IMG/VR virus record: IMGVR_UViG_3300044580_000031
Location: 1 to 43,302 of that record
Length of the DNA stretch: 43,302 nucleotides
Strand: one strand, 5' to 3'
Source: a virus
Taxonomy: Duplodnaviria > Caudoviricetes
The notes under the pieces were generated by a model. It saw only the letters and a list, made by a program, of their open reading frames with translations, was not told where the DNA came from and did not search any database. This document shows positions 242 through 43,302 of this stretch, in pieces. The number at the start of each line of letters is the position of its first letter. Within the stretch, counting starts at the first letter, position 1. The position numbers and the translations under genes were made by a program.

Positions 242-784
242 CTATGGCTGCGCGTTGCTGTCCTTTACCACGACATCCCTTACGGCGTTGATATTGGGGA
301 GCTTATATATCCTTTTGTTTTCCAGGTACTCCTGGACATAGCGCAGGGCCTCGCCGAACCGCTGGAAGTGCACGACCTCCCTCTCCCGCAAAAACTTAAG
401 CGGTTCGATCACATCCGGGTCGTCGGCCATGCGGATCAGATATTCGTAGGTCGACCGCGCTTTCTGCTCGGCCGCCATATTCTCGTACAGATCCGTTATG
501 GGATCGCCTTTTGACTGTATATAGGCGGCCGTGAAGGGAACGCCGGCCGCGCTGACGGGATAGACCGCGCCGTCATGGTCCACGTAATAGGGAGCCATGG
601 AGCTGGCTTCGATCTCCTCCCGGCTGGCCCCCTGGGACAGCTGCCTGACCATGGTCCCCACCATTTCAAGGTGGGCAAGCTCTTCCGTTCCGATATCGTT
701 CAGGGTTGCTTTGGCCTCCGGGGTAACCATGGAAAAGCGCTGGCTTAAATATCGCAAAGATGCCGCCAGCTCCCCGTCGGGTCC
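242..784 (-). pseudogene. cotJC: 3' portion of manganese-catalase-family spore coat protein CotJC, interrupted by the prophage
   Basis: Frame reads GPDGELAASLRYLSQR...DIGTEELAHLEMV...ENMAAEQKARSTYE...FLREREVVHFQRFGEAL, which are CotJC/Mn-catalase motifs. The N-terminus is missing and an in-frame TAA lies just upstream of GGPDGE. Confidence 0.92.
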
Positions 785-808
785 ACCTTACTGTAATAGA
801 CTACGATT
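762..808. other. Host-prophage junction (attL/attR hybrid); crossover core GGTCC at 780-784
   Basis: cotJC coding sequence lies to the left. From 780 rightward the sequence is identical to the right arm of the att site at 43248-43302. Confidence 0.85.
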
Positions 809-834
809 ATATTCCCTTATCTTTTGTTTTCTGG
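780..834 (+). repeat. 55-bp perfect direct repeat, copy 1 (copy 2 at 43248-43302)
   Basis: GGTCCACCTTACTGTAATAGACTACGATTATATTCCCTTATCTTTTGTTTTCTGG is present at both positions. Confidence 0.97.
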
Positions 835-20673: not shown

Positions 20674-20752
20674 GAATGCGGGCAGGGCGGCGTATCCTGC
20701 ATCTCAGGTTCCCTCTCGGGAGCGACGGGAGCCGTTTCCGTCCTCCGCACTC
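20674..20752 (-). ncRNA. Putative 79-nt cloverleaf/four-way-junction RNA (tRNA-like, non-canonical)
   Basis: Closing stem GAGUGCGG/CCGCAUUC encloses GACGG/CCGUC, UCCC-GAGA-GGGA and GCAGG/CCUGC arms; intergenic. Confidence 0.4.
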
Positions 20753-40356: not shown

Positions 40357-40563
40357 TTACGCACTCTGCTCGTTTTTAACAGGCTGCATCGGTTCAATTC
40401 CAAAAAAAGCACAAAGGCGTACATATTCATCCGCTCGAAACTCTCGCCTACCTCGTAGACTCGGTTGCAGCTTTGAATAAGGTACGCCTGTTCGGTCGCT
40501 AATAGTTTTAATGGTCATGCCACTTTCCTTCACCTTATTAGCAATAATATTCTCGCACGTCAT
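40357..40563 (-). CDS. Cro-like XRE HTH regulator
   Basis: 68-aa HTH, first gene of the lytic operon, divergent from the repressor. Confidence 0.85.
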   Translation of the reverse strand: MTCENIIANKVKESGMTIKTISDRTGVPYSKLQPSLRGRREFRADEYVRLCAFFGIEPMQPVKNEQSA

Positions 40564-40576
40564 AGCCCCGCCCCTT

Positions 40577-40689
40577 TCTTAGTTTCTAAGATATTAGAGC
40601 CACAATATCATTAGTTTTTAAGAATGTCAATATCATTTTATCACTTTGTAAGAATTTTTATTGACATTTATTATTTTCGCGGATAATAT
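40577..40689. promoter_or_regulatory. Lysis/lysogeny switch: divergent sigmaA promoters and three 15-bp operator-like sites
   Basis: - strand TTGACA-N17-TATTGT with an extended TG (40630-40602); + strand TTGACA-N17-TAATAT (40661-40689); TCTTAGTTTCTAAGA (40577), CATTAGTTTTTAAGA (40609), TATCACTTTGTAAGA (40639). Confidence 0.75.
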
Positions 40690-40707
40690 AGCCCCTGAGG
40701 TGATAAT

Positions 40708-41100
40708 ATGCAGAACAGGGACTTCACATCGTTAAACAAAGACGATATTGCTCGTTTATTGAAAGAGCAGCGCGCGCAAAGTAAAAAATCAACTTCTGAT
40801 GTTACTAGTCTCCTTAAAGACAGAGGTATTTTCATCTCTGAGACAACGCTCTATGGATATGAAAATGGTGTGTCTACTCCGAAAGTTAAAATATTCTTGG
40901 CTTTGTGCGATATATACGGCATTACAGATATAATGAGCGCCCTTGGTCTTTCAATAGAAAAACCCGCCGGCAATATTGCCGACGGGCTGAGTAAAAATGA
41001 GTCTATAATGTTGAACCTTTTTCGTATGGTTCCAGAGGAGGATCATGATATGGTAGTTCAGATGGTCGAGGCTGCACTAAGGTCAAGAGGATTACTCTGA
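40708..41100 (+). CDS. CI-like XRE-family repressor with no S24 autopeptidase domain
   Basis: HTH ...ISETTLYGYENGVSTP...LCDIYGI; short helical C-terminus. Confidence 0.85.
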   Translation: MQNRDFTSLNKDDIARLLKEQRAQSKKSTSDVTSLLKDRGIFISETTLYGYENGVSTPKVKIFLALCDIYGITDIMSALGLSIEKPAGNIADGLSKNESIMLNLFRMVPEEDHDMVVQMVEAALRSRGLL

Positions 41101-41185
41101 TTGCGGTCTCAATCGCAATAGTTGGATCGCTTGATCCTTCTATTAGCTTACATATCGGCTCTTCTGTCCTCTCCATAATTATCAT
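41003..41185 (-). CDS. Small protein downstream of the riboswitch, overlapping the 3' end of cI on the opposite strand
   Basis: Purine-rich RBS-like AGAAAGAGA; first ORF after the riboswitch terminator; 98-bp convergent overlap with cI. Confidence 0.5.
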   Translation of the reverse strand: MIIMERTEEPICKLIEGSSDPTIAIETAIRVILLTLVQPRPSELPYHDPPLEPYEKGSTL

Positions 41186-41210
41186 CTCTTTCTATAAATA
41201 TTTTAAAAAC

Positions 41211-41236
41211 AAAAAAAGCGATGGTCTAGTCATCGA
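41211..41236 (-). terminator. Terminator in the riboswitch expression platform
   Basis: CGAUG-ACUAGAC-CAUCG-C-UUUUUUU on the - strand. Confidence 0.6.
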
Positions 41237-41261
41237 ATACAGGGCGCATGAGCTGCGCCCA

Positions 41262-41345
41262 GGCTGCAACTGGCTGCCATAGACAAAGTCTTTAGGCCCT
41301 TTAGCTTTGCGTCCTCGTCTTTCGGCGAGTGTGCTAAATATCATT
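41262..41345 (-). ncRNA. GEMM-I (c-di-GMP-I class) riboswitch aptamer, A20 variant
   Basis: AGCACAC-UCGCC-GAAA-GACGAG-GACGCAAAGCU...GGGCCUAA-AGACUUUGUCU-AUGG-CAGCCAGUUGC: GAAA tetraloop, GACGCAAAGC junction, CCUAA/AUGG receptor and CCAGUUGC 3' end. Confidence 0.9.
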
Positions 41346-41521
41346 TTTCTATATTATTCCAATAAATATGTCGAAGGCAAGAAGTATTTGTCGCTAAAGT
41401 TTCTTTATTAATTTCGTTCAATATCACAAAACACGATATCACCCTGCAAACACATTGCAAATATACAAGTCGCAGTGTGCCGATATATGATTGCAGCAAG
41501 CAATTATTTGGAGGCACAGAT

Positions 41522-41680
41522 ATGGCAGAGGATAGAACACCAACATACGTAAGGATTCCAACTGATCTTTTAGAAAAGCTTGATAAAATAGCGATTGACC
41601 AAGAAAGATCTCGTAACTGGGTTATTAATAAGATGTTGGAAAAAGAAGTAGCTTTATATGAAAAGCGCGGTAAATTGTAA
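41522..41680 (+). CDS. Ribbon-helix-helix (Arc/CopG-like) DNA-binding protein
   Basis: TYVRIPTDLLEKLDKIAIDQERSRNWVINKML; RBS GGAGG. Confidence 0.8.
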   Translation: MAEDRTPTYVRIPTDLLEKLDKIAIDQERSRNWVINKMLEKEVALYEKRGKL

Positions 41681-41727
41681 GTGTTAGTGAATGGCCAAGT
41701 CTTGTCTGCCTTAACGAGGTGACGCCC

Positions 41728-43218
41728 ATGAGCACATCAAGAGATAATAAGCTGCCGCCGAAGGTCACCACCGACCTGCGGACAGCGGCCGGATATATCC
41801 GCGAATCGACGGACGATCAGCTTGAGTATTCACCGGATGCCCAGCGAAAAGAACTGCATCGTTATGCGCAGCAGAACGGTTATATTCTGGACGACAGACA
41901 CATTTATGTGGACGAAGGCATATCCGGACGGAAGGCTGACAAGCGCCCTCAGTTCCAGCGGATGATTGCCCTGGCGAAGTCGGAGGCACATCCCTTCGAC
42001 GCGATCCTTGTATGGAAATTCTCCCGTTTCGCACGAAACCAGGAGGAGAGCATAGTCTATAAAAATATGCTAAAGCGCGACGGTGTGGATGTTATAAGCA
42101 CTTCAGAGCCCGTGATCGAAGGTCCTTTCGGCAGTTTGATTGAACGCATCATTGAGTGGATGGACGAATACTATTCCATCCGTCTGTCGGAGATGGTAAA
42201 GATGGGCATGACGGAGAAGGCCCGCCGAGGGGAGATGCAAAGCACCCCGTCCTTCGGATACCGCGCTGAGAACGGCATGTTTGTCCCTGTGCCGGAGGAA
42301 GCCACTGTGGTCCGTGAGATATTCAATCGATTCGTCGCCGGCGAGGGCGCATACCCGATTGCGAAGTGGCTGAACGAGTCCGGCGTCCGGACGCACCGCG
42401 GCAACCGTTACGAGAATCGGACAGTGGAATACATACTCCGTAACCCCGTTTATATTGGTAAGCTCCGTTGGAACCCTACCGGCCGCTCCCGCCGCAATTT
42501 CGATGACCCAAATATAATATTAGCCAACGCCGGCCATGAACCCCTTATTGATATGAGTACCTGGGAGGCAGCGCAGCGCAGGATGGCTGAGATCAAAGCT
42601 CAGTGGGGTTATAAGGCCCGGCCGACGCATGAACTCAAGGACTGGCCAAGCGGCTTTATCCGCTGCTCTGATTGCGGCGCGACTCTTGTATATGCACTTC
42701 CGCATTACTATAAGTGCAACAATTATATAAGAGGCCGCTGCCGTTCTTCGCAGCATGTCCGCGCTGATCTCTTGAAGGAAGCAATCATTGAGCGCCTGAC
42801 CGAGGACGCGGCTACCATATACCCATTGAAAGCGTCTATCATGTTTTCAAAAGAGCGCGGTGGTAGTGAATTAGCCCTGCTGGAATCCCACGTTGCACAA
42901 TTGGAAAAGAAAAAGGACCGCCTCCGAGAAGCGTACCTGAACGGGATCGACACCGTTGAGGAATATCGCAACTGGAAGCAGTCCGCCGACGAGGAGCTTG
43001 AATCTGTAAAGCGCCGAATCGCAGAGATAAAAGAACAAACATCGGACTTGAACTACCTGCCTTTGCTAAGAAGATCCATCGAAGAGGCATTAAAAACCCT
43101 CTCAGCGCCCGATGCTTCAAATGAAGATAAAAACTCCGCCGCACGCTCGGTAATAGACACTTGCATCTTCGATAAAGCTTCAAATACTCTCTCCATCACC
43201 TACCGAGTCCTTTTTTAA
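41728..43218 (+). CDS. Large serine recombinase (phage integrase, SpoIVCA/CisA-like)
   Basis: Catalytic AAGYIRESTDDQ, ILVWKFSRFARN, PSFGY recombinase domain, CSDCG...YYKC zinc ribbon, coiled coil; ends about 30 bp from the att site. Confidence 0.96.
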   Translation: MSTSRDNKLPPKVTTDLRTAAGYIRESTDDQLEYSPDAQRKELHRYAQQNGYILDDRHIYVDEGISGRKADKRPQFQRMIALAKSEAHPFDAILVWKFSRFARNQEESIVYKNMLKRDGVDVISTSEPVIEGPFGSLIERIIEWMDEYYSIRLSEMVKMGMTEKARRGEMQSTPSFGYRAENGMFVPVPEEATVVREIFNRFVAGEGAYPIAKWLNESGVRTHRGNRYENRTVEYILRNPVYIGKLRWNPTGRSRRNFDDPNIILANAGHEPLIDMSTWEAAQRRMAEIKAQWGYKARPTHELKDWPSGFIRCSDCGATLVYALPHYYKCNNYIRGRCRSSQHVRADLLKEAIIERLTEDAATIYPLKASIMFSKERGGSELALLESHVAQLEKKKDRLREAYLNGIDTVEEYRNWKQSADEELESVKRRIAEIKEQTSDLNYLPLLRRSIEEALKTLSAPDASNEDKNSAARSVIDTCIFDKASNTLSITYRVLF

Positions 43219-43227
43219 TACAATCAA

Positions 43228-43277
43228 AATGTTGTCTATTGGTGTATGGTCCACCTTACTGTAATAGACTACGATTA
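43228..43277. other. attP-type site, an imperfect inverted repeat around a central CC (43251-43252)
   Basis: GTCTATTGGTGTATGGT-CC-ACCTTACTGTAATAGAC; the arms match at 13 of 17 positions as an inverted repeat. Confidence 0.85.
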
Positions 43278-43302
43278 TATTCCCTTATCTTTTGTTTTCT
43301 GG
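43248..43302 (+). repeat. 55-bp perfect direct repeat, copy 2 (window end)
   Basis: Identical to 780-834. Confidence 0.97.

Follow-up and report, generated by a model that had tools for sequence, protein, structure and literature searches.

A riboswitch of the GEMM-I class lies between the integrase gene and cI, in the immunity region of the phage genome analyzed here, and probably gates a 57-residue antirepressor of a CI repressor that lacks a cleavage domain, so that a host cyclic dinucleotide, probably c-di-GMP, would set dormancy. The window, that is, the whole stretch of DNA analyzed, is one virus record of 43,302 bases, and the components of the proposed circuit, namely a promoter, an aptamer, terminators and a small ORF, are read on its minus strand toward the 3' end of the convergent cI gene.

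The riboswitch leader has a predicted sigma-A-type promoter (41351–41380, minus strand) that is evident both from the sequence, where TTGCCT (41380–41375) and TAATAT (41356–41351) are separated by 18 nt, exactly as originally read, and from a consensus scan, which returned the same −35 element but with a 16-nt spacer and a TG; transcription would start near 41345 (minus strand). The aptamer (41262–41345, minus strand), which had been recognized by eye, was confirmed with cmscan as a member of Rfam family RF01051 (41345–41262; 62.8 bits compared to the gathering score of 35; E value of 4.5e-10), with the match spanning the full model, positions 1–87. In the Rfam alignment, the GAAA tetraloop, the tetraloop receptor and C92 (41266) are intact. 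The caveat that the P1 stem is not obvious by eye was justified: the canonical register, as read from the sequence, contains no P1, and the stem is weak. Two further departures, both missed in the original prediction, are an A at the equivalent of Vc2 G20 (41335) and a C at 41331, in what is usually an AAA loop; when compared with 34 other viral loci, the aptamer in the window is the sole match with this C.

Downstream of the aptamer, the GC hairpin and the U7 terminator are both present, as had been claimed. The former is HP1 (41242–41260, minus strand), a 7-bp, GC-rich hairpin of the expression platform with a free energy of −14.6 kcal/mol and a poor U-tract; the latter is the intrinsic terminator T2 (41205–41235, minus strand), with a 5-bp stem (41235–41219; −4.0 kcal/mol) followed by U7-G-U5, which is likely to be the switch point. 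The statement that no other terminator is found on the way does not hold, given that T3 (40951–40988, minus strand), a 12-bp hairpin (40988–40961) followed by a U-tract (−21.2 kcal/mol), is located 140 nt inside cI, on the same strand as the leader and antisense to the codons of the CI linker. Therefore, instead of feeding cro and the lytic operon, as originally envisaged, read-through would stop about 400 nt short of cro: termination at T2 would yield a leader of ~135 nt, and read-through, an mRNA of ~390 nt. Two additional candidate features were rejected: a 50-aa ORF over the aptamer (41344–41192) matches no family and has lost its start codon in the close relative from run X1 described below, and a second promoter detected by the scan (41228–41200) has an altered −35 element in the same relative.

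The read-through mRNA would include a small ORF of 57 codons (41003–41176, minus strand) that overlaps the 3' end of cI by 98 nt, encodes a predicted two-helix hairpin and is the likely antirepressor. The original prediction mentioned it as a micro-ORF that is crossed by read-through; the ORF is indeed there, but its status as a conserved protein-coding gene was missed. Single-sequence searches with the small ORF identified no relatives. When the ORF and the CI tail were searched against each of 401 genomes of the host-like family, 4 and 5 genomes gave hits, of which those in G160 and G203 were real; this led to two real loci, L497 and L500, each with a homologous ORF in the same slot. A profile built from three rows then recovered 22 homologs among 23 candidates, many of them close to two of the seed sequences, and in the resulting 25 rows, E5, I12, D17 and A25 are invariant. 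All four residues are encoded outside the overlap with cI, and therefore, the conservation of the ORF is not a shadow of that of cI; the small ORF is selected as a protein. Same-slot orthologs are present in L497, L500, L509, L282 and L584, and profile searches of two sets of 151 relatives each returned the same single ortholog, which is not accompanied by a riboswitch. The AlphaFold2 model of the small protein consists of two helices (residues 6–13 and 18–34; mean pLDDT of 70), for which Foldseek detected no match in the PDB. The ribosome-binding site is moderate (−6.0 kcal/mol) and ties for the weakest among the 14 modules compiled as described below.

The presumed target, the cI-like repressor (40708–41100, plus strand), is a protein of 130 aa with an HTH domain, a disordered linker and a two-helix C-terminal domain (AlphaFold2 model with mean pLDDT of 81.5); both cI and cro (40357–40563, minus strand), the latter heading the early lytic operon, are XRE-type HTH genes. 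In Pfam searches, CI matched HTH_31 only, and an S24 peptidase or self-cleavage domain was not detected within its 130 aa; Foldseek yielded weak HTH matches only, with 1b0n as a weak fold match (E value of 0.26), and cI alone, used as a query against viral contigs, had no match. The divergent cI and cro promoters and candidate operator repeats occupy the intergenic region (40577–40689), with promoter matches at 40661–40689 (plus strand) and 40630–40602 (minus strand) and repeats at 40579–40591 and 40611–40623. No ImmA-type peptidase was identified in the phage, and none of the 32 early-region ORFs matched an antirepressor family. A LexA-like box was not detected between 40500 and 41760 either, where the best matrix score was 5.7 compared to 15.3–22.0 for ten boxes in relatives.

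The host is assigned to the class Clostridia because a manganese catalase fragment at the left end of the window is 87–88% identical to proteins from Oscillospiraceae/Bacillota assemblies and the serine integrase is 58–63% identical to Oscillospiraceae/Clostridiales integrases. The fragment derives from a host gene (Pfam PF05067) that we take to be of the cotJC type and is broken at the codons G-G-P-D. This gene is interrupted by the prophage at an 8-bp core (window 242–834 and 43248–43302), and 55 bases at 780–834 recur at the right end of the window, behind a different upstream sequence. The record carries both the host junction, on the left, and an attP-like junction, on the right, which suggests either that integrated and excised forms coexisted in one sample or that the assembly contains an artefact. 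In L240/L400 and L399, the same gene is apparently broken at the same codons, in L240 beside a related integrase. The large serine integrase of the window (41719–43218, plus strand; phrog_95) consists of Resolvase, Recombinase and zinc-ribbon domains. Next to it, and divergent from the riboswitch promoter, is a ribbon-helix-helix (RHH; Arc/CopG-like) gene (41522–41680, plus strand; Pfam RHH_1, E value of 1.2e-6), which is back to back with the riboswitch promoter and has a 19-nt inverted repeat upstream (gene and repeat at 41476–41680, plus strand); the RHH protein could regulate either this promoter or the integrase. At the left end of the phage (898–1703, plus strand), a DUF5658 gene is paired with a gene for a type IV pilin with a class III signal peptide, and a DUF5658-pilin pair is found directly upstream of the riboswitch in L020 (L020 2878–3568); such pairs possibly function in receptor blocking in phages that use c-di-GMP-controlled pili. 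A Skipping-rope RNA (RF02924, 74.4 bits) was identified between two head-region genes (20674–20752, minus strand).

To assess how often this layout recurs, IMG/VR was scanned with three sets of patterns, the second scan covering 34 of the 64 parts, which yielded at least 69 distinct viral GEMM-I aptamers including that of the window, 61 of them with at least 900 nt downstream; exact patterns miss variants. Five of the 69 aptamers, those of the window, L513, L019, L020 and L114, are oriented directly toward the 3' end of a short cI that runs convergently and is followed by cro, but the aptamer is absent from all 160 loci of integrase relatives and all 78 loci of CI relatives. In the window and L513, the riboswitch is the only input; in L019, L020 and L114, it is combined with a LexA-box promoter located between the terminator and the ORF. 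In particular, L513 contains a promoter, an aptamer with G20, a terminator, a strong ribosome-binding site, a 60-aa ORF overlapping cI and a terminator in the linker, without a LexA box. All four other phage aptamers pass Rfam, and all four modules have G20. The five CIs are only 13–35% identical and the five small proteins 17–30%, and the integrases differ, with a serine enzyme in the window and a tyrosine motif in L019 and L114; for these reasons, the layout points to several separate acquisitions, with L020 and L114 being related. A search of 185,579 genomes with the combined riboswitch-plus-LexA pattern produced 14 loci, none with an aptamer. In five phages of the Bacilli type (L004, L006, L017, L023 and L030), GEMM-I faces the 3' end of a convergent HTH gene of 70–80 aa, often beside an integrase; there is no clear ORF between aptamer and HTH gene in any of the five, and three of the aptamers are located between the integrase and cI, where a LexA box follows at a greater distance. 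These loci, one of which (L004) scores best as the c-di-GMP-I-GGC variant, may represent a separate antisense module.

A closer relative was found in run X1, where a contig of 389 nt and depth 3, such that single differences could be errors, aligns to 41160–41375 with 35 changed letters and 7 gaps (about 80% identity). Position 20 is G in this relative, and the loop is the usual AAA, with A at 41331. HP1 is largely retained, and in T2, none of the stem bases and five loop bases are changed, with one of the latter changes adding a G-C pair. The 30 unaligned letters of the contig, examined by hand in the ORF frame, add nine codons without a stop, in which four residues are identical, two are changed conservatively and, with the junction codon counted, three third positions differ silently. 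Thus, the leader and the ORF, the start of which is open and conservatively changed, are inherited together. Two further X1 contigs are identical to the integrase part of the window (42517–43292), in contrast to the only about 80% identity of the riboswitch contig, a difference that could reflect either the presence of related phages or an exchange of modules.

Prophages related to that of the window carry, in this slot, small ORFs preceded by LexA boxes, and some of these ORFs resemble the dimerization helices of the cognate CI. Among 14 modules compiled specifically because they display a short CI with a convergent small ORF, the latter is preceded by a LexA-type box in 10 (7 exact and 3 with one mismatch to an assumed LexA consensus), often within a sigma-A promoter. 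A LexA box in this position would indicate an antirepressor under SOS control. Of the CI relatives with available DNA, the closest (L315/L325; 47% identity) has such a LexA-type promoter, and the L325 small protein resembles the tail of its own CI (12/26 identities, E value of 2e-5). Across the 14 modules, the small ORFs score higher against the C-terminal domain of the cognate CI than against those of non-cognate CIs (means of 26.9 vs 20.5; permutation p of 0.0006), related pairs not all being independent. This mimicry of CI helices is clear in L325, L273 and L283 and undetectable in the window's own pair, where the ORF is no closer to the CI tail than shuffled sequences (p of 0.36; 0.19 in L513). 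Prediction of a complex between CI and residues 1–40 of the small protein gave a score of 0.01 and a mark of 0.32, with controls not folded, and weighs on neither side of the question of binding. The linker terminator is present in 14 of 15 modules, L513 included, with free energies of −14 to −30 kcal/mol and a U-tract, 123–174 nt inside cI and antisense to it. The K-P...D-G/E-L linker motif common to short clostridial repressors coincides with the arms of this antisense terminator in the window (40951–40988) and in L114, L020, L493, L500, L509 and L283; because of this coincidence, the protein motif may be a by-product of the RNA structure. In an unbiased set of integrase relatives, an exact downstream LexA box was found near 1 of 32 short CIs and 0 of 19 S24-type repressors; hence, the link to SOS rests on selected cases, and the LexA-box module is a minority arrangement. 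In L321, the small ORF beneath the end of cI follows a co-oriented HTH gene rather than a LexA box or a riboswitch, and this gene may represent a third type of input.

The assignment of c-di-GMP as the ligand stands with respect to the GEMM-I class (RF01051), but the identity of the ligand is less certain than originally claimed, given the A20 at 41335: the G20 of the c-di-GMP-selective form is absent in the window, without affecting class membership. A20 is the signature of GEMM-Ib, which recognizes 3',3'-cGAMP (PMC6140456). The signal read by the prophage might then come from a CD-NTase (CBASS-type) or a Hypr-GGDEF enzyme, either in place of c-di-GMP or in addition to it, and a SMODS-family gene is indeed present in one of the five host-like genomes. 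Nevertheless, a preference for cGAMP appears very improbable. The same source describes a clostridial A20 switch, Cbe 1-2, that binds c-di-GMP better than cGAMP (30 nM vs 463 nM; PMC6140456); the window copy is likened to it in having A at position 20 of a clostridial GEMM-I aptamer and differs in the additional change at 41331 and the phage context. A20 is found in 6 of 19 chromosomal copies from the five host-like genomes and in 6 of the 69 viral aptamers, whereas the X1 relative, like the four other phage modules, has G20; together with the Cbe 1-2 affinities, the chromosomal A20 copies and the G20 of the X1 relative rule out A20 as proof of cGAMP sensing. Each of the host-like genomes encodes 1–7 GEMM-I switches and 5–9 GGDEF domains. 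Of the 38 GGDEF matches, 20 were retrieved, and the site could be read in 17; each of these has Asp rather than the Ser/Thr that characterizes Hypr GGDEF domains at that site (PMC6456294). Taken together, c-di-GMP is the likeliest ligand to be predicted from these comparisons. Still, because A20 and the rare substitution here stand against G20 in the close relative, the aptamer of the window may be weakened in binding or bispecific.

How ligand binding would control termination was addressed by folding. In equilibrium folding, HP1 and T2 are formed whether or not the aptamer is constrained (T2 at 0.90 in the free and 0.96 in the bound state), and a three-stem antiterminator, rejected as the main switch, is weak (−7.9 vs −18.6 kcal/mol); therefore, switching would have to be kinetic. 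Such equilibrium behavior is expected of kinetically controlled switches such as Cd1 (PMC9262584). In length-wise folding without ligand, at the stage where the 5' strand of the terminator has only just been transcribed, this strand is paired with an aptamer strand in L020, L114 and L513 (duplexes of −9.7 to −12.0 kcal/mol); in the window, the 5' strand of T2 is paired with the tetraloop region at one transcript length. Because the ligand-free fold pairs the terminator 5' strand with aptamer strands, OFF is the more probable polarity in these models, with high c-di-GMP favoring termination and lysogeny, and a fall, induction. Cdi1_4 and Cdi1_5 of Clostridioides difficile are likewise reported to be OFF at high c-di-GMP (PMC7699646). 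It is also conceivable, albeit unlikely, that the antirepressor unit is real but carries a riboswitch copy that has been weakened or no longer senses its ligand, and that this copy serves as a fixed, leaky attenuator keeping spontaneous induction at a low rate. The combination of A20 and the rare C at 41331, compared to G20 and A in the X1 relative, the G-C pair gained by the T2 stem of that relative, the weak P1 and the formation of the terminators regardless of the aptamer are all compatible with an attenuator, and there are precedents: Bc1, in which a two-terminator platform can mask the response, is a GEMM-I switch that does not respond in vivo (PMC11218506), and Cdi1_4/5 were reported as insensitive in one study and responsive in another (PMC7699646). 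By contrast, 62.8 bits is within the range of the 19 chromosomal GEMM-I copies of the five host-like genomes (55.7–88.4 bits) and exceeds the scores of three of the four other phage copies (52.7–65.7 bits), the tetraloop, its receptor and C92 are preserved, and A20 occurs in nearly a third of the chromosomal copies, all of which speaks against a weakened copy.

In the mechanism that we favor, the ligand state would determine termination at T2 versus read-through; the read-through mRNA would be translated into the 57-aa two-helix protein; this protein would bind the two-helix C-terminal domain of CI and break the repressor oligomer, as AimX does to AimC; and the loss of CI would derepress cro and the lytic operon from their own promoter. 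The idea that a second messenger gates repressor antagonism without SOS is thus upheld with regard to placement, which recurs in four other phages with unrelated repressors and which, in the window, is free of a LexA-like box between 40500 and 41760, but not with regard to the route, because T3 ends read-through. Nor does the effector appear to be a long antisense RNA through cI, as first proposed; the small protein, conserved outside the overlap, is the likely effector. A shorter-range version of the RNA model, in which the ~390-nt read-through transcript reduces CI by pairing with the final ~145 nt of the cI coding sequence or by a collision there, with the ORF incidental, is improbable. Its attractions are that the overlap is real (40951–41100) and recurs in every module, that the five Bacilli-type aptamers face a short HTH gene without an intervening ORF and that riboswitch-led antisense RNAs (RCd11/12) are described in C. 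difficile prophages (PMC7699646). This model is countered by the protein-level conservation, by ribosome-binding sites in 14 of 14 modules and by the arbitrium module, in which the overlap could be recoded without consequence and induction was lost when a stop codon was introduced (10.1101/2025.11.23.689978). We consider it far-fetched, too, that the small protein is under riboswitch control and targets something other than CI, such as the RHH protein, the integrase or a host factor, or that read-through leaks past T3 into cro. The lack of sequence likeness between the ORF and its own CI tail and the unexplained divergent RHH gene would be accommodated in this way, but the fixed position at cI ends across unrelated phages, the LexA control in relatives and the strength and conservation of T3 are not.

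Non-cleavable repressors are common in prophages of anaerobic Firmicutes, and the signal that wakes them is a standing question. Tentatively, we consider it quite possible that a CI-mimicking antirepressor of clostridial prophages is preceded by a plug-in slot, which accepts a LexA box, a c-di-GMP riboswitch or both, and that, in the phage of the window and in L513, the riboswitch replaced SOS outright, so that a drop in host c-di-GMP, as on leaving a biofilm or becoming motile, would alone be the induction signal and the choice between lysis and lysogeny would fall to an RNA that senses a host second messenger. Through a small, fully specified circuit of about 430 bp plus cI, the principal lifestyle messenger of bacteria would then be coupled to induction that requires no DNA damage, and, if the reading is correct, phages would sense host signals with a riboswitch in addition to protein receptors. 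The circuit also points to tiny genes, overlooked as a class, that lie antisense beneath the ends of cI, with a terminator written into the codons of the repressor linker.

Both halves of the proposed circuit, the GEMM-I switch and the small antirepressor, are of known kinds; their coupling may be new, and a literature search, mostly without subscription journals, found no paper on a riboswitch-controlled phage antirepressor. Small antirepressors of CI that are turned on by a host signal or by LexA are exemplified by VqmA-Qtip of vibriophage VP882 and by the LexA-controlled antirepressors of Gifsy phages, but these systems employ protein sensors in Proteobacteria and include no riboswitch. Among GEMM-I switches, Cdi1_4 and Cdi1_5 come from C. 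difficile prophages, lie in the lysis-module region (PMC3649979) and produce terminated (~140 nt) and read-through (~400 nt) RNAs, the latter antisense to a convergent gene (PMC3649979, PMC7699646); however, they lead antitoxin RNAs of type I toxin-antitoxin pairs rather than an immunity-region antirepressor (PMC7699646). The mimicry of repressor oligomerization helices by a small helical protein resembles SinI/SinR of Bacillus subtilis, which is a chromosomal biofilm switch with non-overlapping genes (10.1101/2025.11.23.689978). The closest parallel is the extended arbitrium module aimR-aimP-aimX-aimC-aimL of Bacillus phages (Kabel et al., bioRxiv 10.1101/2025.11.23.689978), in which read-through past a terminator (in some phages, with a LexA site) makes AimX from a small ORF overlapping aimC; AimX binds AimC and is modeled on the C-terminal oligomerization domain of AimC, and the protein, not an antisense RNA, is the antirepressor. 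The layouts agree in the terminator, the occasional LexA site, the helical ORF of 29–80 aa overlapping the 3' end of a short non-cleavable repressor and cro beyond (10.1101/2025.11.23.689978), and the window has the features of an AimX-type module, with a short helical ORF over the 3' end of a short repressor without a peptidase domain and a divergent cro; by likeness to AimX, the window protein would bind CI. The inputs differ, with a phage peptide read by AimR in arbitrium and an RNA aptamer for a host second messenger here, and in the Clostridia phage of the window, the riboswitch, the RHH gene and the integrase stand in place of an upstream aimR and aimP. By this comparison, the window module appears to be AimX-like in its working, but not an arbitrium system.
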